Below, one piece after another: positions 5,598-60,444 of a DNA stretch of 64,000 nucleotides. The notes under the pieces are model-generated. The model saw only the letters and a list, made by a program, of their open reading frames with translations, was not told where the DNA came from and did not search any database. Source of the DNA: a virus. A program made the translations under genes and the position numbers. Every line of letters starts with the position of its first letter. Position 1 is the first letter of the stretch. The stretch is from IMG/VR virus record IMGVR_UViG_3300044797_000094, positions 1 through 64,000 of that record; one strand, 5' to 3'.

Positions 5598-6951
5598 CGG
5601 CATTCGGCGGTTGATGATTTGCATGCCGCCTCGGCACGGCAAAAGTTCGTACGCCTCTCAATATTTCCCGTCCTGGTTTCTCGGTACGTTCCCAGACAAG
5701 CGTGTGATCCTCACGAGTTATGAAGCGTCATTCGCGGCCACATGGGGACGGAAGGCTAGAAACCTTTTGGAAGAACACGGTGGACTCTTTGGCGTTCGCG
5801 TCGCATCGTCGCCCAGTGCCGCCGATCAATGGGACATCGAAGGAAATACGGGCGGGATGGTGACGGCTGGGGTCGGCGGCCCAATTACTGGCCGCGGCGC
5901 GGACTGTGCAATTATCGACGACGCCTTAAAAAACTTTGAGGAAGCGTCATCGCAACTTATTCGGGATAAGATTTGGGACTGGTGGCAGTCGACGTTGTAT
6001 ACTCGCCTTGAGCCTAACGCCGTGGTCGTGATGGTAATGACTCGGTGGCATGAAGACGACCTCTGCGGACGAATCATCGCAAGCGTCAAGTCCGGCGAAA
6101 GTGAACGCTGGCGAATGCTTCGCCTTCCAGCGATAAACAGTCAGAATCTCGCGCTATGGCCAGAGCGATATTCATTGAAGGATCTTCATCAGATTCGTCG
6201 ATCAGTCGGCCCGCATCATTGGGAAGCCCTCTACCAGCAAAATCCGACGGCGAGGGAGGGTTCTTTCTTCAAGGTCAACAAGTTCAATTATGCGCCTTCG
6301 GAACCAATTGGGCTTCGGACTGTCCGAGCGTGGGACTTGGCCGCGACGGAAGGCGACGGCGACTACACGGCGGGAGTGAGGATCGGCATCGACAATGAAG
6401 GGCGAGTTTACGTCTGCCATGTCCAACGCGGCCAATGGGCGACGGACGAACGGGACCGATGGTTGAAATCGACGGCGGTTGAAGACGGCTATGGAACGAT
6501 GATTCATTTGGCGGAAGACCCAGGCCAGGCGTCGAAATCGCAGATGCTGACGCTTTCCCGTCTACTGAACGGATTCAGCGTCAAAAGCCTTCGTGTGACC
6601 GGCAAGAAAACCACGCGGGCCGACTCGTTCAGTTCTCAAGTGAATATGGGAAACGTCTGGCTTGTGAAGGGAAGCTGGAACGGTCCCTACATCGAAGAAT
6701 TGAGGCAATTCGACAAAGGTAAAAATGATGATCAAATCGACGCATCGGCCGACGCCTACAATGAATTGACGCAAACCACAAATCAATATTACGTCGCGAC
6801 CGGAGGCGACAGAGACGACCGAGAAATTGAGCATCATCCCTATGGCGGCATGGTGGAAAAAGACGACGATTTAGAAGAAACTCCGCCTCCAAAAATAGAC
6901 AAGCCCGTTTCGTATCCGTATCACGTGGGCGGCACAGATCGAGTCTACTGA
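5419..6951 (+). CDS. terL: Terminase large subunit (true start probably about 5467-5500)
   Basis: Walker A MPPRHGKS, Walker B CAIIDD, MTRWHEDDL motif, nuclease motifs AWDLA and NDDQIDA. Confidence 0.95.
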   Translation: MFRPLSRRSRNIWSGCVSEPTPQIETPMLWAATISKRKFLLPTHVRVMDKAVTDTIQGIDGIRRLMICMPPRHGKSSYASQYFPSWFLGTFPDKRVILTSYEASFAATWGRKARNLLEEHGGLFGVRVASSPSAADQWDIEGNTGGMVTAGVGGPITGRGADCAIIDDALKNFEEASSQLIRDKIWDWWQSTLYTRLEPNAVVVMVMTRWHEDDLCGRIIASVKSGESERWRMLRLPAINSQNLALWPERYSLKDLHQIRRSVGPHHWEALYQQNPTAREGSFFKVNKFNYAPSEPIGLRTVRAWDLAATEGDGDYTAGVRIGIDNEGRVYVCHVQRGQWATDERDRWLKSTAVEDGYGTMIHLAEDPGQASKSQMLTLSRLLNGFSVKSLRVTGKKTTRADSFSSQVNMGNVWLVKGSWNGPYIEELRQFDKGKNDDQIDASADAYNELTQTTNQYYVATGGDRDDREIEHHPYGGMVEKDDDLEETPPPKIDKPVSYPYHVGGTDRVY

Positions 6952-16617: not shown

Positions 16618-18198
16618 ATGCAAATAATTCGAGTGTCAGGAAACATCGATGGCGAAGACGTCGATTTCGGCGACGTGTGCCTTGACGACGGCCGACTGCA
16701 CTGTCGCTCGTCGTCAGGTCTTGGCCGACGAGTTATGCAAAGCATTCTTGACGAGCCCGTCTACAGCCCTCGAGGCGACGTTACAGCAATTGAAAATCCC
16801 GAAGAATTCTTTCTGCGGCTGCCGACAACCTACCGATCGTACGCGTTGCGGGCTTACCCAATCGATGACGGCTCGGCAGATGCCGCCGAGAAGGCGTTAA
16901 AGAGGGACGTCACAGGAGAGGCAAGAGATCAAACTGGTGAATGGACCTCGGGAGGCGCTTCGACAAAGCCAAGCGTAACGGGAACTCCACGCGTTCCGAA
17001 GCCTCCGACATCGAAGCCATCAAAGAAACCAAATGCCCCGAAGATTGATGAGGATGACGAAGAATCCGGCGGTCGATTCGCAAAGCCTCCCACGCAACGC
17101 GGAGAGATGGTCTATGCCAAGCGAGTCGGCACTGGCAAGAACGTGAAGATCGTTTTGTCCGACGGATCGACTGCGCCGGAGCACATGCAAAAACTGGCCG
17201 GAAGTATTCCGCCGGACTGGAGTGAAGTCAAGATCGCAAAAGATCCGTCAATGGACGTGCTCGTTACAGCAAGAGACCCAAACGGCAATTCGAAGTTGGT
17301 TTACAACGACGCCTACGAAAAACGGAATGAGGCGATTAAGTTTGTGCGTGCGGCGGATATGGTCGCGAATCATGATGTGATTTTGAAAGAGTTCGCCGAA
17401 GATCGACTCAAGTCGGAAACGAGAGAACAAGCGGACTGTGCTCGATTAATGTTGGCCCAGGCGACGAGACCCGGCAGCGAATCTGACAACAAGGGCGTCA
17501 GCAAATACTTCGGCAAATCATTGACTCCAGATGATGTTGTTCTAACGAAAAGCGACAATCCCAAAATCGCAATCATCGGCAAGCAAACCGACGCGCAAAA
17601 GAAAGCGGCCGCCAGCGGTAAAGATGTCGTCGCAATCAATGTCAATGGATCGCTCGTCGTCATCAAGGATAAGAAAACGAAGGCGGAATTATTGAAACGA
17701 GCCAACGAAGGCGGCGACTTGCACGACTCGACGTACTGGCTGAAATCGCACGGCGCGACGACGCTGGAGGGACGACATGTCGTTGAAGCTCCGGATGGGA
17801 CGCGGCTTAAATTTGTCGGAAAAGAAGGCGTCTTCCACGATCACCTGGTCAAAGATCCGGAAGTCGCGAAGATGCTTTTGGAACGCAAAGCGAAATCCGG
17901 CGACACAGGACAGTTATTCAACACGAACGAGATCAAGCTGCGAGATTACGTCAAGACAAAAGACGGCGGCGACTTCCTCTCGAAAGATCTGCGGACCGCT
18001 CGGGCGAACATGATTGCGATCGACGAAATCAATAAGATTCCGGCCCCGAAAACAGACAAGGAATACAAAGCCAAGCGTGATCTTGTGGGGCAGCGGGTGG
18101 CGCATGTGCTCGGAAACGAAATCGCACAGAGCCTAAAGTCATACATTTCGCCGGAATTGTTCTCAGATTGGAGAATCAACGCGGGCGTGCAGGGATGA
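16618..18198 (+). CDS. DNA topoisomerase IB (bacterial/poxviral type) with an N-terminal extension
   Basis: IPPDW N-domain; catalytic set R (ATRPG), GATTL, K (FVGK), R (KDLRT), N (LGN), Y (KSYI). Confidence 0.9.
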   Translation: MQIIRVSGNIDGEDVDFGDVCLDDGRLHCRSSSGLGRRVMQSILDEPVYSPRGDVTAIENPEEFFLRLPTTYRSYALRAYPIDDGSADAAEKALKRDVTGEARDQTGEWTSGGASTKPSVTGTPRVPKPPTSKPSKKPNAPKIDEDDEESGGRFAKPPTQRGEMVYAKRVGTGKNVKIVLSDGSTAPEHMQKLAGSIPPDWSEVKIAKDPSMDVLVTARDPNGNSKLVYNDAYEKRNEAIKFVRAADMVANHDVILKEFAEDRLKSETREQADCARLMLAQATRPGSESDNKGVSKYFGKSLTPDDVVLTKSDNPKIAIIGKQTDAQKKAAASGKDVVAINVNGSLVVIKDKKTKAELLKRANEGGDLHDSTYWLKSHGATTLEGRHVVEAPDGTRLKFVGKEGVFHDHLVKDPEVAKMLLERKAKSGDTGQLFNTNEIKLRDYVKTKDGGDFLSKDLRTARANMIAIDEINKIPAPKTDKEYKAKRDLVGQRVAHVLGNEIAQSLKSYISPELFSDWRINAGVQG

Positions 18199-22359: not shown

Positions 22360-22413
22360 TTATTTGGTCCGAGATCGAGCGAAGCGGCGTGACTTGTGGG
22401 ACGTCCCTGCATA

Positions 22414-23319
22414 ATGGCTGAGTTGCCAAATAGATCCGATCTCGAAGCCCGATTCGCGAAACGGTTCGGCAGAATCGCTAGACGGCACATGCGTGAATTC
22501 CGCCAGCTTCTCGGCGACCCCCCGAACATTGACAACGTTCCTGAAGCCTTCTACGAAAAGATGCAGCGTGAAGTGGACGCGGAAACCTACGCGATTCTGC
22601 TGCTGATCTTCGACGATTCGGCGTTGCTTCACGGATGGAGCGGTCCTGATCAAGCAATGGCGTCATACGGCTGGGCGAAACAGAGAGCCGATGCGTTCTC
22701 TCAATCGTGGGCCGAGTCGACGCGAACGAAGTTGGAAAAAGGCTTTGAGAGACTGGAGGGACCAATTGCTCAACGCGAAGAAACCACAGAAGAGGCTAGA
22801 GAGTCGAATCGCACGATCCCCGCCGAACGAAAACCAGTCACTCAAAAAGAGGTCGATGAACTAATCGATTCGACATGGTCCCCGAAAACGATCGAAAGAT
22901 GGGCGGTCGACGAGACGACGACGGCGCAACACGCCGGCGGTGAAGCTGGCATTGAAGCGACGGTCGGCCTGAACGAAAACGACATTTGGCGTTGCGATTG
23001 GCGGCATGACAACGTGTGCGAGGAATGCTCGCCGCTTGACGAAAAGCCACGTTCTGTTTGGTCGGCAAAGTTCCCAGACGGTCCGCCGTCTCCACATTTT
23101 TTTTGCCGATGCTGGATTCAATATGCCCCAATTGGTGCGAATAAAAGCGCGGCGAGGAAAAGTCTTGAATCAAAAGCATTCGTCGATGCCTGGCACCGCA
23201 CAATCCCCGAAGCCGCCGAATGGCGTGCATATTGCCGAGAGAACGGCGTTGATGTCGAGAATCAAGCGAAATTCAAAGCATTCAATGTCAGCGAACCTCG
23301 GGCTTCAGATGGCGAATAG
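22414..23319 (+). CDS. MuF-like minor head (head morphogenesis) protein
   Basis: W...D.VCEEC..LD...PP.PHFFCRC motif; located between portal and protease. Confidence 0.75.
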   Translation: MAELPNRSDLEARFAKRFGRIARRHMREFRQLLGDPPNIDNVPEAFYEKMQREVDAETYAILLLIFDDSALLHGWSGPDQAMASYGWAKQRADAFSQSWAESTRTKLEKGFERLEGPIAQREETTEEARESNRTIPAERKPVTQKEVDELIDSTWSPKTIERWAVDETTTAQHAGGEAGIEATVGLNENDIWRCDWRHDNVCEECSPLDEKPRSVWSAKFPDGPPSPHFFCRCWIQYAPIGANKSAARKSLESKAFVDAWHRTIPEAAEWRAYCRENGVDVENQAKFKAFNVSEPRASDGE

Positions 23320-23323
23320 ATCG

Positions 23324-23369
23324 AAATTGTTGACGATTTATTGACATTGAGCCTTCAATCTGCTAAGAT
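23324..23369 (+). promoter_or_regulatory. 16-bp operator plus sigma70 promoter heading the sugar/type IV operon
   Basis: AAATTGTTGACGATTT (23324-23339), TTGACA-17 nt-TAAGAT. Confidence 0.75.
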
Positions 23370-23414
23370 GAGGTCCGTCAATCACGAAGCCATTAACAAA
23401 ATAAGGAAGCGACG

Positions 23415-23831
23415 ATGTCTAAAGAATTTGGGATCGCAAGAAACACTGCGTCTGCTCAAGCGTGGCTTGATCAATGCGATGCGGTGTCGATCGTCGAAGA
23501 ACTGAACGATGAGTGGTTGGAATTTGCCTTCGATCCGTCAATCGAAGTATTCGCGGTTCCCGATCATCTCGTATGGTTTGATCAAGGGGCGGCTCCCGCC
23601 GAAGCGACTGAGATATTGAATGCTCGTCACAATACGAGCGATGACGAGGAATGGTTGAAAAGGCTTTTGTGTCGCATCGCGAGCGGTGACCAGGATATGG
23701 TCGCTGCGGAATTCCAAAAGATACCTTGTCTTGATAATGGATGGGACTGGGGAGACGTCTTGAATAAATTGCAAACTGGGGAAATCACCAGGGAAGATAT
23801 TGAGTATGCAATTCATGCGCCGCTTTGCTGA
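23415..23831 (+). CDS. Hypothetical acidic protein
   Basis: TAAGGAAG RBS. Confidence 0.6.
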   Translation: MSKEFGIARNTASAQAWLDQCDAVSIVEELNDEWLEFAFDPSIEVFAVPDHLVWFDQGAAPAEATEILNARHNTSDDEEWLKRLLCRIASGDQDMVAAEFQKIPCLDNGWDWGDVLNKLQTGEITREDIEYAIHAPLC

Positions 23832-23840
23832 TCGGAGAAG

Positions 23841-24029
23841 GTGATGCTTCTTGGCCGCTTTTACAGATTTCAATGCGATACCTGCGGCAAAACCGTCGAA
23901 TGCACGATCCTTCCAAAGAATTGGGTATGGATTAAAGGCGGACCGGAAGGCTTCAAGAAACACGCCTGCGAAGTCTGCAAATCTACAATTCCGAAAGAGA
24001 TTCGTCGTCCGTCAGGAATTCCGAACTGA
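23841..24029 (+). CDS. Small Zn-binding protein
   Basis: CDTC...CEVC. Confidence 0.55.
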   Translation: MMLLGRFYRFQCDTCGKTVECTILPKNWVWIKGGPEGFKKHACEVCKSTIPKEIRRPSGIPN

Positions 24030-24032
24030 AAG

Positions 24033-24980
24033 ATGCGGCCAATGAAAATCCTCGTCACCGGCGGAGCTGGCTACCTCGGGTCCGTGCTCGTAACGGATCT
24101 GCTGTATTCCGGATACGACGTCACAGTCCTGGATTTGTTCAAAGGCGATTCAAGCCGATCTTTGGTTGAATTGTGCGGATCGAAGGAAGTGCGGTTCACG
24201 CCGATCAAGGGGGATGTCCGCAACTTGACTGACCTCAGCGTCGCAATGGCTCGATGCGACATCCTAATTCCATTGGCGGCTATTGTTGGCGCTCCAGCAT
24301 GCGAGGATGATTGGGGCGCGACCAGCACAAACCTCAGCGCCATCGAACAAATGATTGGATTGCGATCGCAGAGCCAGGCAATCCTTTTTCCATGCACAAA
24401 CAGCGGCTACGGAATCAGCAGGCATCATGAAATCTGCGACGAAGAATCGCCACTGGCACCGATCAGTAAATATGGCAGATTGAAGGTAGCGGCCGAGAGG
24501 ATCGTCTTGAATGACGGAAACAGCGTGACATTCCGCTTCGCCACCCTGTTCGGTTGTTCCCCTCGAATGCGACTGGATTTGCTCGTCAATGACTTCGTTT
24601 ATCGGGCCGTGAAAGACCGGTCGATCATCGTGTTTGAGGGACACGCCAAGCGAAACTACTTGCACGTGCGAGATGCCTCAAGAGCCTTTCTCCACGCAAT
24701 CGAAAACTTCGAAGCGATGGAAGGCCGCCCGTACAATGTGGGCCTGTCAGACGCGAACCTGTCCAAGCTGGAGTTGTGCGAGCGAATCAAGCGACATGTG
24801 CCGGAACTGTTTTACAGCGAATCGCCGATTGGAGAAGATCCAGACAAGCGGGACTACGTCGTGTCGAACAAGCGAATTGAAGCGACTGGCTTCAAACCGA
24901 AGTATTCGCTGGACGATGGGATCAGGGAATTGATCAAGGCGTATTTGATGCTGGATGCCGCGAGATACAGGAACGCTTGA
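24033..24980 (+). CDS. NAD-dependent NDP-sugar epimerase/dehydratase (extended SDR)
   Basis: GGAGYLGS, YGRLK catalytic motif, RMRLDLLVN. Confidence 0.92.
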   Translation: MRPMKILVTGGAGYLGSVLVTDLLYSGYDVTVLDLFKGDSSRSLVELCGSKEVRFTPIKGDVRNLTDLSVAMARCDILIPLAAIVGAPACEDDWGATSTNLSAIEQMIGLRSQSQAILFPCTNSGYGISRHHEICDEESPLAPISKYGRLKVAAERIVLNDGNSVTFRFATLFGCSPRMRLDLLVNDFVYRAVKDRSIIVFEGHAKRNYLHVRDASRAFLHAIENFEAMEGRPYNVGLSDANLSKLELCERIKRHVPELFYSESPIGEDPDKRDYVVSNKRIEATGFKPKYSLDDGIRELIKAYLMLDAARYRNA

Positions 24981-25156
24981 TGGAACGCTTCAATGAGCGA
25001 GCGATCTGGGTTGCAGCGTGCGGCATTCTCATCGTCTGCAATCTCTTGCTTCGTGCCGATCTCGGAAACACTCAACATGATTTACGGATGGCGATTGAGC
25101 GTGAGCGAACATTGAATCGAATGTTGGACGTCATGATAGACAAGGACAATCGGTGA
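24980..25156 (+). CDS. 58-aa membrane protein (below the ORF-track cutoff)
   Basis: MERFNERAIWVAACGILIVCNLLL...; overlaps both neighbours. Confidence 0.55.
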   Translation: MERFNERAIWVAACGILIVCNLLLRADLGNTQHDLRMAIERERTLNRMLDVMIDKDNR

Positions 25157-26373
25157 GCCTTACAAACTGCCGCATATGCGATTCCACAAAACTGGATTTA
25201 ATCCTCGATCTCGGCATGCAACCCTGGGCAAATCACTTTCTCAAGAAAGAGGAGTGTGGCACAGAACCGAAATATCCGCTTCGATTGGTTCGTTGCGACG
25301 AATGTTCGCTCGCTCAATTGGATTTCACCGTGCCGAAAGAAACGATGTTCGTCGATCACACGTATCTGAGCGGCACGACGAAATCTCTCGGCACCCATTT
25401 CAAGAAAGTTGCGGATGATGTGGTTGATCGATTCTTCGGACCGTACCCGCGAAATCGATCTGTTCTTGACATTGGATCGAACGACGGGACACAGCTCAGG
25501 AATTACAAGGAGAAGGGATGGCGAGTCCTGGGATGCGAACCGTGCAATAGCGCGGCGAAGATGGCGAACGATTCAGGAATTCCCACATTGATCAATTTTT
25601 TCAGGGCCGGTTTTTCGGAGGCATGTGGGACATTTGACGTCATCAATGCTTCTGGCGTCCTGTTCCATTTGGAGGATCTTCATTCTGTCATGGAGGAAAT
25701 TCGCCGAGCATTGAAGCCGCAGGGGATCTTCGTCGCCCAATTCCTCTACATGCCCAGCATCGTCGAAAACTGCGCCTTCGATCAAATCTATCACGAACAC
25801 TTGCTTTACTACACGATGAAGACGTTTTGCGACCTGATTGAACGACACGGACTACACTGCTTCGATGCTTATTTTTCGCCGATCCACGGAGGGTCAATCG
25901 TCGCGTTCTGTGAGCACAAAAGCATCGACAATCTGACATCGTATCGGCTCGATCAATTGCGGGGCGGAGAAGAAGAAATTGGAGCGAACATGAAAGAGAC
26001 GTACGAAGGGTTCGCCAGGTCAGTGTTTGCGAAGCGACTTGAACAGAGGAAGCAATTAAACGGCTGGCGGATGCTGGACAAAAAGGTGTTCGGATTAGGC
26101 GCTCCGGTTAAAGGCAACACATTGCTGAATTACTGCCGAGTCGGGCCTGAATTGATCGAGTGTCTCGTCGAACGCAATTCGCTCCGTCGCGGACTCTGTG
26201 CCCCCGGCTCGCATATTCCTGTCGTGATGGAGGACGAACTGACGGAAGATCCAGACGTCTATTATGTTCTGGCGTGGAATTACAAGGGTGAGATTCTGGA
26301 ACGGTACGAGGATAAGATCGAAGCGGGCGTCGAGTTTTACTTTCCGATCAATCCGAAAGGTGTCGCATCGTGA
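25153..26373 (+). CDS. NDP-sugar C3-methyltransferase (Zn-binding N-domain + class I SAM MTase + C-MT C-domain)
   Basis: CRIC..LDLGMQP.AN, C..C.LAQL, DIGSNDG, FDQIYHEH, GAPVKGNTLLNY, LAWNY. Confidence 0.92.
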   Translation: MSLTNCRICDSTKLDLILDLGMQPWANHFLKKEECGTEPKYPLRLVRCDECSLAQLDFTVPKETMFVDHTYLSGTTKSLGTHFKKVADDVVDRFFGPYPRNRSVLDIGSNDGTQLRNYKEKGWRVLGCEPCNSAAKMANDSGIPTLINFFRAGFSEACGTFDVINASGVLFHLEDLHSVMEEIRRALKPQGIFVAQFLYMPSIVENCAFDQIYHEHLLYYTMKTFCDLIERHGLHCFDAYFSPIHGGSIVAFCEHKSIDNLTSYRLDQLRGGEEEIGANMKETYEGFARSVFAKRLEQRKQLNGWRMLDKKVFGLGAPVKGNTLLNYCRVGPELIECLVERNSLRRGLCAPGSHIPVVMEDELTEDPDVYYVLAWNYKGEILERYEDKIEAGVEFYFPINPKGVAS

Positions 26374-26651
26374 GAACAGCATTCAAGAGACCGTGGCCGA
26401 GCGATGCGGTCATCATCGTTTGCGCGTCGCCGGAAGACGCGAATCGAAGCAACATGTCGTCGATCCAGTCCGGAAAGTGTCGAGACTGCGGCGATGACAT
26501 CCTGGTCGATGGAAAATCGATCGACTCGGGGATGCGGATGAATGAGCGATGTGGAAGACCGGTCGAATTCCTGTGTGTGGATTGCGCCGTTGAATACGAC
26601 ATGCATACGATCGAGAAACTGGTTGACCATCGAAAGAAATCCGGAACATGA
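26370..26651 (+). CDS. Small Zn-binding protein
   Basis: CRDC...CVDC; coupled overlaps. Confidence 0.55.
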   Translation: MRTAFKRPWPSDAVIIVCASPEDANRSNMSSIQSGKCRDCGDDILVDGKSIDSGMRMNERCGRPVEFLCVDCAVEYDMHTIEKLVDHRKKSGT

Positions 26652-27577
26652 ACATCTTCGTCACCGGCGCAACGGGCTTCCTTGGTCGTCATCTTTGCAG
26701 GCGATTAAGCAAGGACGGTCATCGAGTCGCCGAAATCGACTCTCATCAATGCGACCTCACAAAACCGATCGAGCAACAAATCAGACTTGGCTTCGACGTC
26801 GATGTGATCTTCCATCTGGCCGCGTGGACGCAGGCCGGGGACTTTTGCTTGCATCATCCCGGAGAACAATGGCTGATCAACCAAAAGATCAACACGAACG
26901 TCCTGGACTGGTGGCGTCAGGAAAATCCAGAGGCGAAACTGATCTCGATCGGCAGCAGTTGCGCCTACGATCCAGATGGCGACATGCGTGAGGAAAACTA
27001 TCTTCGAGGAACGCCGCACCACGACCTTTTCGCCTACGCGACGGCCAAACGAATGCTCCATGTAGGGCAACTCGCGATGGAGATCCAATACGGGATGAAA
27101 TCCCTGACGCTCGCCCCGGCGACGCTCTACGGCGTCGCTTATCACACGGACGAACGTCAGCCGCATTTTATCTTCGATATCGTCCGAAAGATTCTTAGAG
27201 GAAAACAGAATGCGGAACCTGTCATCCTCTGGGGCTCGGGCTTCCAAAAGCGGGACGCGATTCATGTGGGCGACTTCGTGGAAATCGCCGTCCAATGTCT
27301 TGGGACCTCGCCGTGCGGAATTTTGAACATCGGCCCAGGTTCCGCTTTGACGATCCGCGAATACGCTCGCGTCGTCTGCGATCTTATTGGCTTTGAATCT
27401 GAAATGATTCAGTACGATCACGACGCTTATTCAGGCCAAAAATCAAAAATTCTGGACGTCGGTCGGCTTCGAAGAACGTTCCCTGGATTTCTTAATACGC
27501 CGCTGAACATTGGACTTCAGCAGGTGATTGATTGGTACAAGGCTAATCCGCAACTCCTCGCGCCGAAAGGTGAGTGA
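26648..27577 (+). CDS. GDP-L-fucose synthase-like epimerase/reductase
   Basis: GATGFLG, HLAA, GSSCAY, YATAK, WGSG.QKRD. Confidence 0.88.
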   Translation: MNIFVTGATGFLGRHLCRRLSKDGHRVAEIDSHQCDLTKPIEQQIRLGFDVDVIFHLAAWTQAGDFCLHHPGEQWLINQKINTNVLDWWRQENPEAKLISIGSSCAYDPDGDMREENYLRGTPHHDLFAYATAKRMLHVGQLAMEIQYGMKSLTLAPATLYGVAYHTDERQPHFIFDIVRKILRGKQNAEPVILWGSGFQKRDAIHVGDFVEIAVQCLGTSPCGILNIGPGSALTIREYARVVCDLIGFESEMIQYDHDAYSGQKSKILDVGRLRRTFPGFLNTPLNIGLQQVIDWYKANPQLLAPKGE

Positions 27578-28227
27578 TGTCAATCATTGGAGCGTCAAGC
27601 CTACTCGCGGTAAACGTCGGCGATGATCACTGCTTCTATTGCGGCGACAAGGCTAATCGATCATTGAAAGTCTCCGACACATTTGCCGATGGCTGGTGCG
27701 TCGCGTATCCGCAGTCGAAAATGATGTGCTGCGGCTGTGAGATGAGCCTTGACGAAAAGATCGCGATTGCAGGCAAGGAAAAGCCACAAAAGTTCCGCAA
27801 TTATTCGTGGCATATAAGCCGATCAAAGGCAACCCCCATGACTAAGGCCAACAAGCGGGAGATGACGGGGCTGTTACTTGAGCCGCCGAGTGAGCCTTGG
27901 GCGTTCGCGATTGCCGAGAGCGGCCAGAAGCATCTCGTTTATCGAACACCAGCGAATCTCGGTGACGGGCCGTTCGTCGTTCGTCTTGAAGATGAACTCG
28001 TTGTGTACTCGCCTCGATCGCTGCGTGACAGAATTGATTTGTGCAGAGCTGTCGTGGCTGTCGTCGGCCATAAGGGCGCCAACGATTTCTCGGTGACGTC
28101 CGTGATCGCTCTCGGTTTAGAATTGGCGCTGCAATGGGAAGCGGTCTATCGAGAGCCATTAACACGCCTGGCGTTATTCGTAACGCCTGGGAAATCCGAG
28201 TGTGAAGAAATTGAGGATGACTTATGA
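27574..28227 (+). CDS. csf1: Type IV CRISPR large subunit Csf1 (Cas8-like)
   Basis: N-terminal CFYC...C..C Zn site, RNYSW, 'LLEPP.EPWAFAIAESGQKHL.YRTP.N'. Confidence 0.85.
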   Translation: MMSIIGASSLLAVNVGDDHCFYCGDKANRSLKVSDTFADGWCVAYPQSKMMCCGCEMSLDEKIAIAGKEKPQKFRNYSWHISRSKATPMTKANKREMTGLLLEPPSEPWAFAIAESGQKHLVYRTPANLGDGPFVVRLEDELVVYSPRSLRDRIDLCRAVVAVVGHKGANDFSVTSVIALGLELALQWEAVYREPLTRLALFVTPGKSECEEIEDDL

Positions 28228-28706
28228 TCAAGATTCTGGACTGTGCGGAGTATCGACGGCAGCTTGCTGGCCTGGCTGACGTCTCGGGGGGCGAAGATTC
28301 ATTCGCCGACGAATACCGGGAGATGACGAGCGAATGCGTGTTGCTACTGGCGATCTGTTTCAATCGACGACAGCTTGAGGCGGTCACGATCTGGAGTCGT
28401 ATCGACGCGGCGATACAGAAGGGCCTCGCTGATTGCGACGGCGAGGACGTCGATCGATTCCTGTCAACGTGTCTGGAGCACGTCCTCGCGAATATCAGCG
28501 TCGTCGCATCACAACCGGACGCGATCAGAATTCAGCAGTCGATCCTGAAGCTGAGCGGCGACGAACGAGTCTATTTCCTCCAGTACCTCGCGAAGCATAG
28601 ATACGTCGCCATCGTGCTCGGTCGAGAAAAGTGGGAGATGCGGAAGGCGGAAATCGCGGCGCAATTAAAGTCGCTCGACACGACGGAAACGGCGGTGTCC
28701 GAATGA
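28224..28706 (+). CDS. cas11: Type IV-B small subunit (Cas11-like), all-helical
   Basis: 160-aa helical protein between csf1 and csf2, ATGA-coupled on both sides. Confidence 0.65.
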   Translation: MIKILDCAEYRRQLAGLADVSGGEDSFADEYREMTSECVLLLAICFNRRQLEAVTIWSRIDAAIQKGLADCDGEDVDRFLSTCLEHVLANISVVASQPDAIRIQQSILKLSGDERVYFLQYLAKHRYVAIVLGREKWEMRKAEIAAQLKSLDTTETAVSE

Positions 28707-29557
28707 AGGTGTTCTGCGCATCGACAAACATTAGTCCGGTCAGTCATCAACTCGGAACCGTTGGCAACGAATCGATCGTGAATGTCGAGGACGTCCGAAC
28801 GCCGCTGGGTTCGAGAAAAGTTCCGGTCCTCAGCGGGAACGCGATTCGGCATCGGATGATCAGGGCTCCCGGCGCGGATTATCTCATTGACGCCCTGGGC
28901 CTTCATGGAAAGCTGTCGCGGGACGTTCTTAATCTTCTTTATCACGGAGGAATCAAACGAGAAAAAGGGAAAAGCCCATCGCTGGCGAGAATCGCGGATA
29001 TGCATCGGTTGTTTCCGCTGCTGCGATTACTCGGTGCTTGCCTGCCGGAAGCGATCGTCGCCGGTGAACTCACGGCGCATCGAGCCATGCTGGCGTGCCG
29101 AGAGAATCAGTCGCGGATCAATGCCATCGCTCCGAAAGGCTGGGAATTTGAAGGACACCTCGCGCCTGCGACGTCGTTCATCGAGAGGTGGCAATACGTG
29201 CGAGGCGTGATGAAGCATTCACTCGCGCATTCGGCCACTGACACGACCGACAAGGATGAATCGACAATGATGCCCTTCGCGGGAACGTGCGTGATTCCCG
29301 GAGCGGTCTGGGTTCATGGGTTCTCGATGTCGATATGTTCGCAAATTGAGTTCGGTTGCCTTTTGCATTGTCTGCGGAAATGGGATGCGGACGGTGCGAC
29401 GATCGGCGGACAATCATCGCGAGGGCATGGTATTCTGCAATTGTCGATTTGGACAGACGCCGAGTTTGATCACGATGAATCGATATCAGCATACGAAGAG
29501 CACGTCGATGACAATAAGGGCGATTGCGTGGAATTTCTTCGAGGTTGCTATTCATGA
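28703..29557 (+). CDS. csf2: Type IV CRISPR backbone subunit Csf2 (Cas7 RAMP)
   Basis: SPVSH, VPVLSGNAIRHRMIR, LYHGG, FPLLRLLG, IPGA, Gly loop IGGQSSRGHG; start 28703 by ATGA coupling. Confidence 0.92.
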   Translation: MKVFCASTNISPVSHQLGTVGNESIVNVEDVRTPLGSRKVPVLSGNAIRHRMIRAPGADYLIDALGLHGKLSRDVLNLLYHGGIKREKGKSPSLARIADMHRLFPLLRLLGACLPEAIVAGELTAHRAMLACRENQSRINAIAPKGWEFEGHLAPATSFIERWQYVRGVMKHSLAHSATDTTDKDESTMMPFAGTCVIPGAVWVHGFSMSICSQIEFGCLLHCLRKWDADGATIGGQSSRGHGILQLSIWTDAEFDHDESISAYEEHVDDNKGDCVEFLRGCYS

Positions 29558-30279
29558 GCCTGATTAAGTCGCCAAAGCACACGGCTTCGGACTTGACTGT
29601 CTGGCGCGAATTGGAATACGCGGATCGAGTCCATGCCAGGCATGGAGCGCTGCGAAGAAAATGGGACAGGTGCTTAAGTCTCGCGAAAGAATTCGCCGAT
29701 GGTGGACCTTGTCACTGCTCGACGAGCTGGGGAAAGGACTCCGTGGTGACGGCATTCGCGGTAATGACTGTCGCTCCGAAAACTCCGCTGTGCTGGATCA
29801 GGGTAGAACCCGTCAAGTCGCCAGAATGCGTTCTTGTGCGAGACGTTTTTCTGAGGAGATTCCCGAAATGCGATTACCACGAGACCGAGGTCGTCTGCGA
29901 GAAAGATGAGGATGGATGGCATGCGACGGGAACGCTCGAAAAAGGAATCAAGATTCTTGATGAGCGATTCGGCCCGCGAACGATCCTCGGTATTCGAGCC
30001 GAAGAATCGTCTCACCGTTTCCTGAGTATCGCATCAAGCGGTTGCAACACGAAGAATAAATCGAGGCCGTGCGGATCGCTGACAGAGAAAGACGTCTTCG
30101 GATTGCTGAGCATGCACGATCTGCCGATCCATCCCGCATATGCGATGACCGGCGGCGGAAGGTGGCCCCGAGAACACTTACGGGTCGCGTCGCTCGGCGG
30201 AAAGCGTGGGCAGGGCTTCGGGCGGCTGGAATGGGAGCGTGAATATTACGCAGACGAACTTCGGAGGATTGGAGAATGA
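29554..30279 (+). CDS. cysH: CysH/PAPS-reductase-like PP-loop protein of type IV-B
   Basis: STSWGKDS PP-loop, LGIRAEES..R, LPIHPAY. Confidence 0.88.
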   Translation: MSLIKSPKHTASDLTVWRELEYADRVHARHGALRRKWDRCLSLAKEFADGGPCHCSTSWGKDSVVTAFAVMTVAPKTPLCWIRVEPVKSPECVLVRDVFLRRFPKCDYHETEVVCEKDEDGWHATGTLEKGIKILDERFGPRTILGIRAEESSHRFLSIASSGCNTKNKSRPCGSLTEKDVFGLLSMHDLPIHPAYAMTGGGRWPREHLRVASLGGKRGQGFGRLEWEREYYADELRRIGE

Positions 30280-30989
30280 AGACGCGATTCGTCAAGGTGA
30301 CGGCGCACCTGATATCGCCAGTCGCGTTGTCACCGGAAGGCGAAGCCCCGCATCTGGACGCGATTTGTGAACTTGTTCTCGCTCAGCACACGAGATCGAT
30401 CGCGGCATCCTCCAACGGAAATCGGCATCTTCTCGACGTCGCCAAGATTCGTGGACAGGAAGTGTCAGCTCAGGGGCAATTGCCGATACCGATCGTGCGT
30501 GAGAAGGTCGATGGCATCCCGGTTCCGCGATGTTCGTTCGGCATCATGGAAAAGACTCAAGAAACCGCCGAGCATTACCACTGCGCGTTCCCGATTGAAC
30601 GGGCGATTGAGGTCAGCGAGAAGGAGCGGATTCAGATCAGGACGACGGGCGGCGTCTACAAATCGGTCAGGTTGCCGCTGCGATTGTCGACGACATCGCG
30701 GATTGTCTGGTTCGCCGAACTGCGAGAATCCCCATGCAAATTGCGAAAACTCGTCAATCAAATAGAAACGCTCGGAAAGAAATCGGTGTACGGTTATGGG
30801 CGAGTTTCGGAATGGACCGTGGAAGAAACCGATATCGACGCAAGTTGGTTTCATGGCGGCGTGTTGATGCGTGCTCTCCCGATTTCAGTCGTGTCCGACG
30901 ACATTCAGGGGAAGCGACGATCATACGGAGCTGTCGCAGGCCCGTATTGGCAGCGATCATTTTTTGTCGATCGATACGTCCCGTATTAA
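30276..30989 (+). CDS. csf3: Type IV CRISPR Csf3 (Cas5 RAMP)
   Basis: KVTAHL.SP, HLDAI, LPIP, LGKKSVYGYGRVSEWTVE, LMRALP, PYW. Confidence 0.9.
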   Translation: MKTRFVKVTAHLISPVALSPEGEAPHLDAICELVLAQHTRSIAASSNGNRHLLDVAKIRGQEVSAQGQLPIPIVREKVDGIPVPRCSFGIMEKTQETAEHYHCAFPIERAIEVSEKERIQIRTTGGVYKSVRLPLRLSTTSRIVWFAELRESPCKLRKLVNQIETLGKKSVYGYGRVSEWTVEETDIDASWFHGGVLMRALPISVVSDDIQGKRRSYGAVAGPYWQRSFFVDRYVPY

Positions 30990-31988
30990 CTAAGCCCGAT
31001 AAATAATCTCGCTTCCTTTTGCGTTGATACGTATCGGAACTTCGGGGCAGCCCGGCAAAGCCGCGACGACGGACGCTCGTTTCTCGGGCGGAACGATGAA
31101 CAAAAGGAAGCCGCCGCCTCCGGCCCCGAGAAGCTTTCCGCCCCATGCTCCGTGGCGAATCGCCGTTTCATAGAATTCGTCGATCTTTCCGCTTGAGATC
31201 CCGTCATCAAGCGTTTTCTTGCGAATCCATGTTTGATGCATGAGTGTTCCGAATTGATAAAACTCGCCGCCACGTAAAGCCGCCGCTCCGACGTCGACAC
31301 ATTCGTAAAGCTCTCGCAGAGTTGAAAGATTGTCGCCGATCTTGTCAATCTGCTTCGCGGCGATATCGCTCGCCCGCCTTCGGACGCCGGTGTAAACAAA
31401 AAGCAGATGCGACTCAAAATTGCGGATCAAATCGTCCGACAGATTCAGTGGATGAATGGAAAACTGTTCATGACCGCCAAATCGGACGACATTCAGTCCG
31501 CCGTGCGATGCGGTAATCTGATCCTGATAGCCGACAGATTCACGGAGCGTCGTTCGCTCCACGTCAATCGCACATTCGGCAAGTCGATGATTGCCGCCGA
31601 CAATTCCGAGAAGGCCCCAAATCGTTCTCAGGAGCCCAACGACGAAGCTGGATGATGATCCAGTCCCGGAGAAGCTCGGCAAGTCGGCATGAAGGCTAAA
31701 TTCGAGCCCGGACCGCAATCCGTGGAACTTGAGGATCTCGCGAAATGGCGTGTGTTCCATTTCCTCAAGTTCCTTCACGAGTTCGACCTTGGAATAGGCG
31801 ATGCGAAGCTTGTAGTCGAAAAGTTCCGGATTGAATCGACTCGCGGAAATGAAAATCGATTTGTCAATCGCCGTGGCGAGAACAGCGCCAGGTCCGTACT
31901 TCTCGAAATATTCCGGATAATCCGTTCCTCCGCCAAAAAAGCTGATCCGAAATGGAGTGCGAGAGATGATCACGAAGGCTGCTTCCAA
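30990..31988 (-). CDS. hddA: GHMP sugar kinase (HddA-like heptose-7-phosphate kinase)
   Basis: TPFRISFFGGGTD, P.FSGTGSSSS, GYQDQ, GGKLLGAGGGGF. Confidence 0.9.
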   Translation of the reverse strand: MEAAFVIISRTPFRISFFGGGTDYPEYFEKYGPGAVLATAIDKSIFISASRFNPELFDYKLRIAYSKVELVKELEEMEHTPFREILKFHGLRSGLEFSLHADLPSFSGTGSSSSFVVGLLRTIWGLLGIVGGNHRLAECAIDVERTTLRESVGYQDQITASHGGLNVVRFGGHEQFSIHPLNLSDDLIRNFESHLLFVYTGVRRRASDIAAKQIDKIGDNLSTLRELYECVDVGAAALRGGEFYQFGTLMHQTWIRKKTLDDGISSGKIDEFYETAIRHGAWGGKLLGAGGGGFLLFIVPPEKRASVVAALPGCPEVPIRINAKGSEIIYRA

Positions 31989-32731
31989 TGCTTCCAGTGC
32001 TTTGCAGTGAACTCGTCTGCGATTGCCAGAGATTCCGGCGTACCAATATCGATGAAATCGCCTTTGACGGGAATGACGCGAATCCGCGTTCCTAGAATCA
32101 GGCAGTTCGGAATCACAACTTCCTCAAAACTGACAGGAGACTCGAGAACACCTTTGCAGATCGGCAGTCCATCCGGAATGAATTCGAACATTTCCGGTTT
32201 GATGAAATAAATTCCAGCGTTGATATAGCCGGGCGTCGATTCATTCTTTCGAATCGATCGCAACATCAGTTCCGCATTGAAGAGCAGCTTGCCAAATCGC
32301 GAACAATCCTCTTGCCAAGCGGCGAGCATCGAGATCCAGGCGTCGGACTGTTTTGGGATCGAGACGGCATATGGCAAGTCGTCGCTGATCAGGAGTGAGT
32401 CTCCGTTGAAGACGATCGCTGAATGATCCTTGTATTGCTCCCAAGCGTTGCGGATCGCTCCGGCCGTCCCTCGCGGGGACCGCTCTTCGGCGACGTTCGT
32501 GAGCGGTGGCAAATCGAGCGTGTTCAAAATCTCGAACGCCTTTTCCCGTTGATAGCCGGTTGCAATCGCGGTTCTCTGAATTCCGAGCGACTTGATCTGC
32601 CAGAGCACACGCTGGATGAACGGATGGCCAGCGACTTCGATGAACGGCTTGGGGATGGTTGGATGCAAATGAGCGATGCGAGTACCTTTTCCGCCCGCAA
32701 GGACGATTGCGACGGGCTCATTCGAATCCAT
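31970..32731 (-). CDS. hddC: Sugar-1-phosphate nucleotidyltransferase (HddC-like)
   Basis: LAGGKGTR...PKP, GTAGA, NGDS, INAGIY, FIDIGTPE. Confidence 0.88.
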   Translation of the reverse strand: MDSNEPVAIVLAGGKGTRIAHLHPTIPKPFIEVAGHPFIQRVLWQIKSLGIQRTAIATGYQREKAFEILNTLDLPPLTNVAEERSPRGTAGAIRNAWEQYKDHSAIVFNGDSLLISDDLPYAVSIPKQSDAWISMLAAWQEDCSRFGKLLFNAELMLRSIRKNESTPGYINAGIYFIKPEMFEFIPDGLPICKGVLESPVSFEEVVIPNCLILGTRIRVIPVKGDFIDIGTPESLAIADEFTAKHWKHWKQPS

Positions 32732-32768
32732 AAATCAGCGACTTTCGGAATAATTGTCGATTTGGAAT

Positions 32769-32816
32769 AAATTGATGACGATTTCCATTGACTGCTGATG
32801 AAAAGATAATTAGAAT
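32769..32816 (+). promoter_or_regulatory. 16-bp operator plus sigma70 promoter in the divergent hddC/DUF932 gap
   Basis: AAATTGATGACGATTT (32769-32784), the exact reverse complement of the 19143 site; TTGACT-17 nt-TAGAAT. Confidence 0.75.
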
Positions 32817-32881
32817 CTCTTTTAACGCATCGCAACGAAATCGTGGTGACGGATGCGGATTCTAAACAAAGGAGAGACGAA

Positions 32882-33628
32882 GTGGCAACAACGCAGTTAA
32901 TCGCTCATCGCGGTTCACGGATCGTGGAACGATCGGAAGTAGACGCTGTTGAACCGGTCGAAGGGACTGACACATGGGTGCCGACACCTCATGGGTTTGT
33001 TTTGGAAACTGTCGAAACAATTTTGATGAACGCCGGATTCGGCATCGCGAAATCGCGGTATGCTTTGTCGAAAGATGACGCCAGGTTCTTCGGAACGCTT
33101 GATCTGACAAGTCCGATTTCGGAAGGCGTCTCTCTCGCTGTCGGAGTAAGGAACTCGATCGACAAGACGTTTCCGATTGGTCTTGTGGCAGGCTCAAGAG
33201 TCTTCGTATGCGACAATCTGGCCTTTAACAGCGATATCTACGTCAGCAAGAAGCACACACGATTTGGCAAGGAACGATTCGATGAAGGAATATCAAAAGC
33301 GTTGGTCGCATTGAGCCACTTCAAGACATTGGAGTCTCGACGGATCGAACATTATCGCAATTTCGAACTGACCGAGACGCAAGCGGCAGCGACTCTGCTT
33401 CATGGATTCGAGAACGGAATTCTGAGCACGCAACTACTGCCGATCGCACTCGAGGAATGGCGGAATTCGAAGCATGAGGAATTTAGGCCAAGAACCGCAT
33501 GGAGCTTATTTAATAGCCTCACGGAAGCGGCGAAAGCGCGTGCCTTGAATCCGCAGAAGTTCGCGGCCATTACAATGAAAATGTATGGTCTAATCGATTC
33601 CGTGTGCGGCTTCAATGTCGCGGTCTGA
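32882..33628 (+). CDS. DUF932-family protein
   Basis: W.P.PH, GVRNS.DK, AG.RVFVCDNLAF, KHT, TAWSLFN..TE; AAGGAG RBS before GTG. Confidence 0.85.
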   Translation: MATTQLIAHRGSRIVERSEVDAVEPVEGTDTWVPTPHGFVLETVETILMNAGFGIAKSRYALSKDDARFFGTLDLTSPISEGVSLAVGVRNSIDKTFPIGLVAGSRVFVCDNLAFNSDIYVSKKHTRFGKERFDEGISKALVALSHFKTLESRRIEHYRNFELTETQAAATLLHGFENGILSTQLLPIALEEWRNSKHEEFRPRTAWSLFNSLTEAAKARALNPQKFAAITMKMYGLIDSVCGFNVAV

Positions 33629-33697
33629 AGTCAATTCAACGTGGCCTCGTGTGATGTGAGGCCGCTCTTTCTGGTTGAAAACATTTTGGAGAATTCG

Positions 33698-34474
33698 ATG
33701 ACTATGAGAATTGAAAATGGCTTTGTAATCGACGAACGAAACAATCGAGCAAGCATTCCTCAGTATGAATCGGAAGATGCCGCGAAAGCGGCTCTTGAAA
33801 GCTGCTCTGACTGCTCTGACTGCTCTGACTGCTCTGACTGCTATGGCTGCTCTCGCTGCTCTCGCTGCTCTCGCTGCTATGGCTGCTCTGACTGCTCTGG
33901 CTGCTCTGGCTGCTCTCGCTGCTCTCGCTGCTATGGCTGCTCTGGCTGCTCTGGCTGCTCTGACTGCTCTGACTGCTCTGACTGCTCTGGCTGCTCTGGC
34001 TGCTCTGACTGCTCTGGCTGCTCTGGCTGCTCTCGCTGCTCTCGCTGCTCTCGCTGCTCTCGCTGCTATGGCTGCTCTGACTGCTCTGGCTGCTCTGACT
34101 GCTCTGGCTGCTCTGACTGCTCTGACTGCTCTGACTGCTATGGCTGCTCTGACTGCTCTCGCTGCTCTCCAAAACAAATGTCCGAAGAGGCCCCAGTTAT
34201 CGAAAAAATCCACAAAAAGATTTACGAAGCTGCGTCAGCTCCAGGTGCGTTTTGCATGAACGATTGGCATAAATGCAAAACAACACATTGCCGAGCCGGA
34301 TGGACAGTGGAGCTCGCCGGTGAGGCCGGTAAGAAATTGGAAGAGCGAACATCGACGCTGTTCGCGGCAATGCAAATCTACAAGGCATCTGGATATCTGA
34401 TATCTCCATGTCGATTCTTCGACAGCGACGAGAAGGCAATGGAAGACATGAAACGGCTGGCCGAACAATCCTGA
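33698..34474 (+). CDS. Cys-x-x repeat protein with a C-terminal 'WH.C.TTHCRAGW' domain
   Basis: GGAG RBS; non-repetitive N- and C-terminal domains are in this frame. Confidence 0.75.
   Translation: MTMRIENGFVIDERNNRASIPQYESEDAAKAALESCSDCSDCSDCSDCYGCSRCSRCSRCYGCSDCSGCSGCSRCSRCYGCSGCSGCSDCSDCSDCSGCSGCSDCSGCSGCSRCSRCSRCSRCYGCSDCSGCSDCSGCSDCSDCSDCYGCSDCSRCSPKQMSEEAPVIEKIHKKIYEAASAPGAFCMNDWHKCKTTHCRAGWTVELAGEAGKKLEERTSTLFAAMQIYKASGYLISPCRFFDSDEKAMEDMKRLAEQS
33803..34168 (+). repeat. 40 tandem 9-bp units plus a partial unit (TGCTCTGAC / TGCTCTGGC / TGCTCTCGC / TGCTATGGC)
   Basis: Read directly from the sequence; only four unit types occur. Confidence 0.97.
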
Positions 34475-37952: not shown

Positions 37953-39338
37953 ATGGCTGATCTCGCAACCCTCGAAACTCGCGTCGAAGACCTCGTCAAG
38001 AAGAACGAGGCATTGGCGTCGGAAAATAAGTCCTTTAAGTCGCAAATCGATAAGCTTGCGGAAACTCCAAATCATGCCGGAATCCATGCGGCCCCCGGCG
38101 TCACATCGTCCTTCGACGACAACGACGTCGAATCCGCCACGCTCGTCTACGATTTCACGTCGTCGTATCGCGGGAATATGGCGACCCAGACCGGCGGACA
38201 AACTCGATCAGACCGGCATACGGCGATGAAGTCGATCTGGAAAACTCTGAAATCCAGTGGATATCAGCGATGCGGCGCGACGGGATCAGGCTTCAAGAGC
38301 TTTAAGGATTTCGTGCTCCAGGGACTCGAAGACAACGGGCGCACTCAGGGCTTCCGCGACAACTACAAAAAGCACATGGATCCTGTCTTCAAGACAATTC
38401 AGGGGATGTCCGAATCCATCGGCACTGACGGTGGATTTGGCGTGATTCCTGAATTCAACCTGAAGATCCATGAGCACGTCTACGCAAATAATCTTTTCGC
38501 CCGCACTGACGGCTATACCGTTTCCGGCAACAACATGACGTTTCTGGCGAATGCTGAAACGAGCCGAAAAACGGGCTTCCGGGCTGGCGGCCTGCAAGCC
38601 TATTGGACGGGTGAAGGTTCTTCGATCACCCCGAGCAAGCCGACGATCCGCGAAATCCAGATGAAGCTGCAAAAGCTGGCCGTCGTGGTCTATCTGACGG
38701 ATGAGCTTCTCAAGGACAATGCGATTGCCCTGGAGCAATACGTCACCCGCAAGGTGTCGGACGAATTCGCGTGGATGATGGGCAACAGCCTGTTCAACGG
38801 AACCGGCGCTGGTCAGCCGCTCGGAATCATCAACTGCCCGAGTCTCCTGGTCATCGCGGCGGTCGGAGGCCAATCAACGCTCACGATCGTCAGCGGCAAC
38901 ATCATCACGATGCAAAACCGCCTGTTCGCTCCCTATATGGAAAATGCAAGCTGGTTCGTGAATCAAGACACGATTCAACAGTTGATGCAACTCACGTTGG
39001 CTACTGGAACGTATTCCGGTCAATTGGTCTACATGCCGCCGACAGGGTTGGCGGGATTGCCTTACGGAACGCTGGGTGGTCGGCCTGTCGAGCCGATCGA
39101 ATTCGCGGCGAGCCTCACGACTCAGGGCGATATCACATTGGCTGATTTGGGTCAAATCATCTCGATCACGAAAGGTGGAATTCAGCAGGCGGTTTCCATG
39201 CATGTGGAATTCCTGACCGATCAGATGGCGCTGAGATTCACGATGCGACTCAATGCTCAACCGTGGGAGAACAGCCCGATCACTCCGGCAAACGGCACGA
39301 ACACTCAGTCCAGCTTCATTCAATTGGCTTCGCGATAA
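37953..39338 (+). CDS. Major capsid protein (HK97 fold)
   Basis: GTDGGF.IPE, W.GEG, KL.....TDELL.D, G.G.GQPLGI, F.TDQ.A.R...R. Confidence 0.95.
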   Translation: MADLATLETRVEDLVKKNEALASENKSFKSQIDKLAETPNHAGIHAAPGVTSSFDDNDVESATLVYDFTSSYRGNMATQTGGQTRSDRHTAMKSIWKTLKSSGYQRCGATGSGFKSFKDFVLQGLEDNGRTQGFRDNYKKHMDPVFKTIQGMSESIGTDGGFGVIPEFNLKIHEHVYANNLFARTDGYTVSGNNMTFLANAETSRKTGFRAGGLQAYWTGEGSSITPSKPTIREIQMKLQKLAVVVYLTDELLKDNAIALEQYVTRKVSDEFAWMMGNSLFNGTGAGQPLGIINCPSLLVIAAVGGQSTLTIVSGNIITMQNRLFAPYMENASWFVNQDTIQQLMQLTLATGTYSGQLVYMPPTGLAGLPYGTLGGRPVEPIEFAASLTTQGDITLADLGQIISITKGGIQQAVSMHVEFLTDQMALRFTMRLNAQPWENSPITPANGTNTQSSFIQLASR

Positions 39339-55020: not shown

Positions 55021-55200
55021 ATGAGAATCGTGTCAGAGTCAGGATTCAGTCCTCTTTGCAACTCGCTCTTGATTGTGCAAGACCGGAGCACATTGCCGAC
55101 GACGCCCTACGGACTAGGCGGACCATTATTTCCCGCCGGATGCTATATTTGTCTTGTTCCCGTTTCCACTTCAAGTAGCTCGGGAAGCAGCAGTTCATGA
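55021..55200 (+). CDS. 59-aa FxPLCxS-family peptide C with a poly-Ser tail (missing from the ORF track)
   Basis: MRIVSESGFSPLCNSLLIVQDRSTLPTTPYGLGGPLFPAGCYICLVPVSTSSSSGSSSS; ATGA-coupled to the GT25 gene. Confidence 0.75.
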   Translation: MRIVSESGFSPLCNSLLIVQDRSTLPTTPYGLGGPLFPAGCYICLVPVSTSSSSGSSSS

Positions 55201-60443: not shown

Positions 60444-60444
60444 A

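Follow-up and report, generated by a model that had tools for sequence, protein, structure and literature searches.

The DNA analysed here (hereafter the window) covers the leading 64 kb of the 76,387-bp linear IMG/VR viral record IMGVR_UViG_3300044797_000094, which comes from peat metagenomes and has a CheckV completeness of 72%. Positions 27574-30989 of the window hold a type IV-B CRISPR-Cas cassette, which consists of five plus-strand open reading frames (ORFs) in the order csf1-cas11-csf2-cysH-like-csf3 and has sugar-nucleotide genes on both sides. The five genes are as follows.

27574-28227, plus strand: csf1, the small "large subunit" (TIGR03114)
28224-28706, plus strand: cas11, a 160-aa helical small subunit (structure match only)
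28703-29557, plus strand: csf2, the Cas7 backbone subunit (TIGR03115, phrog_22746)
29554-30279, plus strand: cysH-like, a PP-loop enzyme of the CasCysH type between csf2 and csf3 (PF01507, phrog_2302)
30276-30989, plus strand: csf3 (Cas5) (TIGR03116, phrog_34599)

An earlier sequence-only reading of this DNA had described this gene order with 4-nt overlaps that include the junction with an upstream Fcl-like gene, and a csf3 stop codon abutting the convergent hddA stop, and all of these were found, as was a promoter-like site with a recurring motif upstream. ORF coordinates and junction letters agreed on start/stop overlaps of GTGA between the Fcl-like gene and csf1 and of ATGA at the four junctions inside the cassette, and the chain extends upstream (24977 TTGA, 25153 GTGA, 26370 GTGA, 26648 ATGA), with ten ORFs from 24033 to 30989 joined in this way. 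The csf3 stop TAA (30987-30989) touches the stop of the minus-strand gene at 30990-31988 with zero gap. The region was matched without differences by Logan contigs from two peat-metagenome runs, of which one contig covers 21547-28437 (the sugar genes, csf1 and part of cas11) and another, from a second peat study, covers the csf3/hddA junction (30598-31183), so the junctions are not assembly artefacts. Among the sequencing runs listed as containing this DNA, none was an RNA run.

The NCBIfam matches of the three Csf proteins were all below the curated cut-offs, and each was the top match of its own ORF. For Csf1, TIGR03114 (cas8u_csf1) was the sole NCBIfam match (E 3.2e-14, 53 bits against a cut-off of 140 bits), and the cysteines C20, C23, C52 and C55 of its CxxC...CxxC pattern were conserved in an alignment of 38 homologues. 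Csf2 matched TIGR03115 (E 1.9e-9) and phrog_22746 (E 7e-54), and a profile built from 30 homologues scored higher against the IV-C Cas7c 11fs (E 4e-17) than against the IV-B Csf2 of 7jhy (E 2.5e-6). Csf3 is the weakest of the five gene assignments, with TIGR03116 as its sole NCBIfam match (E 8.1e-6, 25.6 bits, far under the cut-off); it also matched phrog_34599 (E 1e-18), and 47 loci have an orthologue at this place in their cassette. The cas11 product had no sequence match in Pfam or NCBIfam, or when its family profile was compared with PDB sequences, and Foldseek on its model returned nothing meaningful. Its AlphaFold2 (AF2) model was all-helical (predicted local distance difference test score, pLDDT, 89), and the best match in an exhaustive VIA-align search was the IV-B chain 7jhy_h, with Z 9.8, a root-mean-square deviation of 3.3 A and 116 of 143 residues aligned (runner-up match, Z 5.0). 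The predicted structure thus points to a Cas11-like small subunit, which separates IV-B and IV-C from IV-A.

The CysH-like protein matched PF01507 weakly (E 7e-4) and phrog_2302 clearly (E 7e-21), and its family profile matched CysD (1zun, E 1.5e-13) and 3'-phosphoadenosine 5'-phosphosulfate (PAPS) reductases. Its AF2 model (pLDDT 95.9) has the fold of PAPS reductase, the PAPS domain of FAD synthase and CysD (Foldseek probability 1.0). The PP-loop residues S58, G60, K61, D62 and S63 (position 59 is W in the window protein) and the motif G146-x-R148-xx-E151...R155 were invariant across 37 homologues. Thus, the protein has its fold, its PP-loop and the G-x-R-xx-E-S...R motif in common with PAPS reductase, CysD and flavin mononucleotide (FMN) adenylyltransferase of the adenine nucleotide alpha-hydrolase fold. 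However, PAPS/APS (adenosine 5'-phosphosulfate) reductases have a C-terminal catalytic cysteine motif, which the CysH-like protein lacks, and sulfonucleotide reduction is therefore unlikely. A PP-loop without redox cysteine is the CasCysH pattern of Taylor et al. 2021 (PMC8175902), and CasCysH has been proposed as an ATP alpha-hydrolase or AMPylator (PMC7937560, PMC8175902, PMC13676074). A search for longer proteins in which the CysH-like protein is fused to another part had no scoring match, although this search is itself weak evidence.

A CRISPR array, Cas6, Cas1 and DinG were looked for in the whole record, and these searches cover 76,387 bp at 72% completeness and so not the whole phage. 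A k-mer scan of the 76 kb found no interspaced repeats except a coding 9-bp tandem repeat (33801-34168), and the 64-kb window had no Rfam families and no tRNAs. Six-frame profiles for the DinG-type helicase C domain, Cas1 and Cas6 (PF13307, PF01867, PF01881, PF10040) were unmatched in the record, and RecD was not searched. The absence of CRISPR repeats, cas6, cas1 and DinG, which had been claimed for the 64 kb, thus holds across the full record, and the proposed profile matches to Csf1, Csf2 and Csf3 were recovered as well. From these results, the locus at 27574-30989 was confirmed as a genuine and intact type IV-B cassette in all the defining features open to testing.

The cassette and the sugar-nucleotide genes lie in one island, and the features of this island are the following.

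23320-32842: accessory island of 9.5 kb with sugar-nucleotide genes and the IV-B cassette, between 22396-23319 and 32843-33628
23341-23369, plus strand: promoter-like site at the left island edge, TTGACA-17-TAAGAT with extended -10 TG (consensus match only)
23415-23831, plus strand: first island ORF, 138 aa, no family match
24033-24980, plus strand: short-chain dehydrogenase/reductase (SDR) of the nucleoside diphosphate (NDP)-sugar epimerase/dehydratase family (PF01370, E 1.4e-27)
25153-26373, plus strand: NDP-sugar C-methyltransferase-type enzyme (PF08484, E 1.2e-39; PF08421, E 2.8e-20), with Zn-binding, methyltransferase and C-terminal domains
26648-27577, plus strand: Fcl-like SDR, a GDP-fucose-synthase-like epimerase/reductase (NF047922, E 2.2e-32, below cut-off)
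30990-31988, minus strand: GHMP sugar kinase, HddA/fucokinase-like (NF049969, E 5e-42, below cut-off; PF00288, PF08544)
31970-32731, minus strand: sugar-1-phosphate nucleotidylyltransferase, HddC/ManC-like (PF00483, E 2e-21; NF049965, E 3e-22)
32859-32888, minus strand: promoter-like site facing the hddC-hddA pair (consensus match only)

To define the island, syntenic phages were picked by their capsid protein, and the best one with flanking DNA was L066 (record G001), whose capsid is 53% identical. In L066, the homologues of 22396-23319 (44%) and 32843-33628 (63%) are only 75 nt apart, so the whole block 23320-32842 is an accessory island relative to this phage. The left neighbour is a 307-aa head-region protein without Pfam or NCBIfam match, and its homologue in L066 has 482 aa. 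Homologues of Csf2 and HddA are both missing from the L066 record; a GT4 homologue is present, and a TTGACA-17-TAACAT site lies at the equivalent intergenic spot. GC content, GC content at third codon positions (GC3) and codon usage of the island showed no anomaly relative to the genome, which marks the cassette as a long-standing resident of this genome, and a recent horizontal arrival was rejected on the same measures.

One promoter-like site lies upstream of the plus-strand genes and none was predicted inside, and the right island edge has a divergent pair of such sites. The scan for sigma-70-type promoters gave 7 sites where 9.6 were expected by chance, so that these calls rest on position and on a shared motif, TGACGATTT..TTGAC, which is common to the left-edge site and the plus-strand right-edge site. 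The form TGACGA(T/A)TT..TTGAC occurs on the plus strand at 21595, 23331, 32776 and 62472, each time in intergenic DNA and with a TAnnAT-like hexamer about 17 nt later; two of these four sites bracket the island and one follows the glycosyltransferase block.

To see whether the sugar genes accompany IV-B cassettes elsewhere, we collected loci with Csf2 relatives from IMG/VR (42 loci), metagenomes (5 loci, one matching Csf2 and CysH only distantly) and metagenome-assembled genomes (14 loci), took each with up to 10 kb per side and compared the window proteins by tblastn. Among the 42 viral records, 14 were at least 90% complete and 4 had terminal repeats. Almost all loci carried csf1, cas11, csf2 and csf3, with cysH downstream. 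By comparison, none of about 57 related IV-B loci had a homologue of a sugar gene of the window within 10 kb, and a profile search of the complete records found an NDP-sugar epimerase-family gene in one of the 42 viral records, about 20 kb from the module. The reverse search gave the same picture, with no Csf or CysH-like gene in any of 80 viral loci carrying a C-methyltransferase homologue (15 of these had an SDR and 14 a Fcl-like gene). The sequence-only reading had taken the effector to be functionally wired into a sugar-modification operon and had proposed to survey related phages for the same pairing; in every comparison made, the linkage was unique to this contig, and the proposed wiring was not supported.

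The closest relatives in the survey gave no sugar context either. The order csf2-cysH-csf3 is common to the window and to L045, L046 and L047 (Csf2 61-77% identical) and marks a small clade. L045 (Csf2 77% identical) is the only one of these three with real flanks, and it has a lipase-like gene upstream, a homologue of window 1719-2339, and no sugar genes. The CysH-like proteins of the window and L045 are 42% identical, against 63-77% for Csf1, Cas11, Csf2 and Csf3. The CysH tree joins the window protein with that of L027 (99/94), a member of a different Csf2 clade; a swap of the cysH gene was considered and not established, because the approximately unbiased (AU) test does not reject the clade of the Csf2 tree (p 0.099). 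A terminase gene was present within 10 kb in 9 of about 45 IV-B loci, which is not above the expectation from phage genome size.

The donor genes of the island have partners of a conventional kind in the same window. Beside the tail genes, 55197-62374 carries a GT25 gene, a GT25-GT2 fusion, two GT4-type genes and an RmlD-type reductase gene, which gives the donor genes partners for glycan synthesis that have nothing to do with the Csf genes. The glycosyltransferases likely draw on the sugar nucleotides that the island enzymes make, and the donor genes would then belong to a phage glycosylation system whose transferases are encoded at 55-62 kb.

Four-nucleotide overlaps are the normal packing in phage (late) operons. 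They are no evidence of a shared pathway, and the sugar linkage of the cassette looks like co-residence in one accessory island and not like a functional partnership. Our preferred reading, to which we give a probability of about 0.7, is that the IV-B cassette of this tailed peat phage is an accessory set which shares an island with sugar genes without sharing a pathway with them. Some points weigh against this reading. The unbroken chain of 4-nt overlaps at 24977-30989 makes co-translation of the sugar and Csf genes very likely, and more than chance could lie behind this. The survey does not include the closest Csf2 relatives, which are 81% (P0002) and 78% (P0003-P0005) identical and sit on Logan contigs of up to 15.5 kb (P0015 is on a 45-kb contig), and a clade-specific sugar linkage may exist among these 78-81% relatives. 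An array or a Cas6 gene could lie in the remaining 28% of the genome, and the assembly of the ribonucleoprotein (RNP) and the CysH chemistry are proposed here from sequence and from analogy.

One rival, in line with the sequence-only reading, has the IV-B complex working in a single pathway with the sugar-nucleotide enzymes; a Cas7 scaffold might, for example, hold the PP-loop enzyme in place so that it activates a nucleic acid or a glycan, and the C-methyl deoxy-sugar of the island would then be attached to this target. Both ideas of the sequence-only reading, the positioned PP-loop enzyme and the sponge for host CRISPR RNAs, are known from the literature. The GTGA/ATGA overlaps that run on from the sugar genes into csf1, the single promoter-like site upstream with none predicted inside, the sugar-nucleotide genes on both sides of the cassette and the presence of adenylyltransferases (CysD, FMN adenylyltransferase) among PP-loop enzymes of the CysH-like fold would all suit such a pathway. 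But the survey showed no co-occurrence elsewhere, cysH accompanies the csf genes in many phages without sugar genes, and the donor genes have their conventional partners in the glycosyltransferases at 55-62 kb, so we consider this coupling quite improbable. A sponge, in which the array-less Csf complex soaks up host CRISPR RNAs or other small RNAs and so neutralises host CRISPR immunity, seems an unlikely explanation as well. It agrees with the Mycobacterium IV-B complex forming on heterogeneous non-CRISPR RNA (PMC7937560), with the negative correlation between IV-B and other CRISPR systems in hosts (PMC7038947) and with a cassette that is common in phages, but Pinilla-Redondo et al. 2020, who raised the idea, judged a sponge unlikely for its complexity (PMC7038947). 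A sponge also gives no role to the strictly conserved and apparently active CysH-like enzyme or to the radical SAM (S-adenosylmethionine) enzymes that replace CysH in eight loci, and mini-arrays in some IV-B phages suggest guide use.

That the cassette is an inert, decaying passenger without current function is highly improbable. It has no array, no nuclease and no adaptation genes, and all its NCBIfam scores are under the curated cut-offs, as might be expected of a remnant; yet none of the five ORFs is broken and they are tightly coupled, the catalytic and zinc-binding residues do not vary among 37-39 divergent homologues, the AF2 models are confident, the composition matches that of the genome, and dozens of phage genomes keep this set of five genes.

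On the reading of a cassette that merely shares the island, it would probably be expressed together with the plus-strand sugar genes on one transcript starting near 23.34 kb. As in the Mycobacterium IV-B complex 7JHY, Csf2 and Cas11 would assemble along RNA into a helical filament, whose caps, if other class 1 complexes are a guide, would be Csf3 and the zinc-finger protein Csf1. The CysH-like enzyme, with an intact PP-loop and no redox cysteine, may use ATP to adenylylate a substrate at or near the RNP, and the cassette would act in conflicts between phage and host or between elements, with no part played by the sugar genes. Our confidence in this mechanism as a whole (filament, caps and adenylylation) is moderate. 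A complex prediction for Csf1, Csf3, Csf2 and the CysH-like protein, in which CysH was taken as the partner, reached 0.19 where the mark is 0.32, which is evidence neither way.

More information on the enzyme came from the related loci. The neighbours of all loci were clustered and family searches were run on the cluster representatives. Eight loci proved to have B12-binding radical SAM genes (TIGR04013-like), one or two per locus, next to the csf genes or among them.

L003, 11812-13053: radical SAM gene(s)
L014, 1219-2547: radical SAM gene(s)
L020, 11600-14232: radical SAM gene(s)
L029, 7227-8576: radical SAM gene(s)
L034, 11573-14283: radical SAM gene(s)
L038, 11906-13357: radical SAM gene(s)
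L042, 2075-3361: radical SAM gene(s)
L058, 11600-14232: radical SAM gene(s)

The cysH gene was absent from all eight of these loci (8/8), and two of them, L014 and L042, have the radical SAM gene in the slot that cysH fills in the window, between csf2 and csf3. No mention of radical SAM variants of IV-B was found in the searchable literature. In six other loci, a second and longer (374-425 aa) paralogue of the PAPS-reductase/CysD family is placed after csf3 and ahead of the usual cysH-like gene, and three kinds of loci have CRISPR-like mini-arrays, in which two direct repeats of 32-37 nt stand about 36-43 nt apart, 5-8 kb upstream of csf1. Positions of these are given below.

L008, 13326-14450: longer paralogue
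L010, 3408-4538: longer paralogue
L016, 12451-13728: longer paralogue
L022, 12875-14008: longer paralogue
L032, 11557-12840: longer paralogue
L016, 3098-3207: mini-array
L032, 1698-1808: mini-array (same in L041)
L011, 3017-3123: mini-array (same in L018)

This distribution suggests a Csf scaffold with an exchangeable enzyme slot, taken by a CysH-like enzyme in most phage cassettes and by one or two B12-binding radical SAM enzymes in the eight loci. PP-loop adenylyltransferases and radical SAM enzymes are typical modifiers of nucleic acids or proteins. One could go further and see phage IV-B cassettes as RNA-scaffolded, possibly RNA-guided, machines for covalent modification, and not for interference or as a sponge, with the copy here perhaps also recruited to the co-transcribed sugar pathway; we hold this extended idea to be speculative and rather doubtful.

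Among described systems, the IV-B complex of Mycobacterium sp. JS623 (7JHY; Zhou et al. 2021, PMC7937560) has the same five components, and both it and the window cassette are without array and Cas6. The JS623 system is on a plasmid, whereas the cassette here is on a tailed phage, is very divergent in sequence and has cysH between csf2 and csf3. Type IV-B in general lacks arrays and binds heterogeneous RNA (PMC7937560, PMC8175902). IV-B modules carried by prophages, phages and other viruses have been published (PMC7038947; Koonin and Makarova 2024, PMC11656645), and the "Fuxiviridae" of Bathyarchaeia carry IV-B as well (bioRxiv 10.1101/2023.08.24.554615). Phage-borne IV-B is thus already known and the window cassette adds a further instance, which like the published virus-borne ones has Csf effector genes and a CysH-like gene and no adaptation module. 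The Fuxivirus has a mini-array of two repeats and one spacer beside its cas genes, whereas none was found in the 76-kb record here, and it is a virus of Bathyarchaeia, whereas the carrier here is a bacterial-type tailed phage from peat.

A cultured actinophage may carry a similar set. Skermania phage SPI1 (L002, KR011061.1 32609-36242) has five same-strand ORFs of matching sizes, orf40-44, which are annotated as hypothetical. By tblastn, two of the five were matched, orf42 by Csf2 (24%, E 5e-7) and orf44 by CysH (29%, E 5e-10). In SPI1, cysH is last, genes for ribonucleotide reductase and lysis are nearby and there are no sugar genes. From its sequence, orf40-44 looks like an unannotated IV-B-type cassette and a possible experimental model.

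In the phage genome, the IV-B cassette is located in the morphogenesis/head-gene region, between portal-side genes and the capsid gene. The landmarks are listed here.

5419-6951: large terminase
12233-16597: 1454-aa portal fusion protein
16618-18198: topoisomerase-IB-like gene with the catalytic core of eukaryotic-type topoisomerase IB, directly after the portal fusion gene
21778: GNAT
37953-39338: major capsid protein

The 1454-aa protein has, besides its portal domain, 2'-5' RNA-ligase/2H-like and PI3/PI4-kinase-like regions. To the right of the island, 33641-34474 encodes a 277-aa protein without family match, which has about 41 consecutive Cys-Ser-[Asp/Gly/Arg] (and Cys-Tyr-Gly) triplets, and these triplets are encoded by the 9-bp tandem repeat mentioned above. 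By megablast, the region had no match among GenBank phages, and scans of IMG/VR with the single proteins Csf2 and HddA gave no match for either.

Type IV-B is the one widespread CRISPR-Cas subtype without known function, and this function was still described as unclear in September 2026 (PMC13676074). In the survey, dozens of tailed phages from many habitats had the cassette in their genomes, and the window holds a compact and apparently fully functional phage copy of it, with a promoter-like site and an operon predicted from its sequence. Its eye-catching sugar context gives no clue to this function, which spares a wrong lead, and the mutually exclusive pattern of CysH and radical SAM enzymes is a more promising handle on the purpose of the scaffold.

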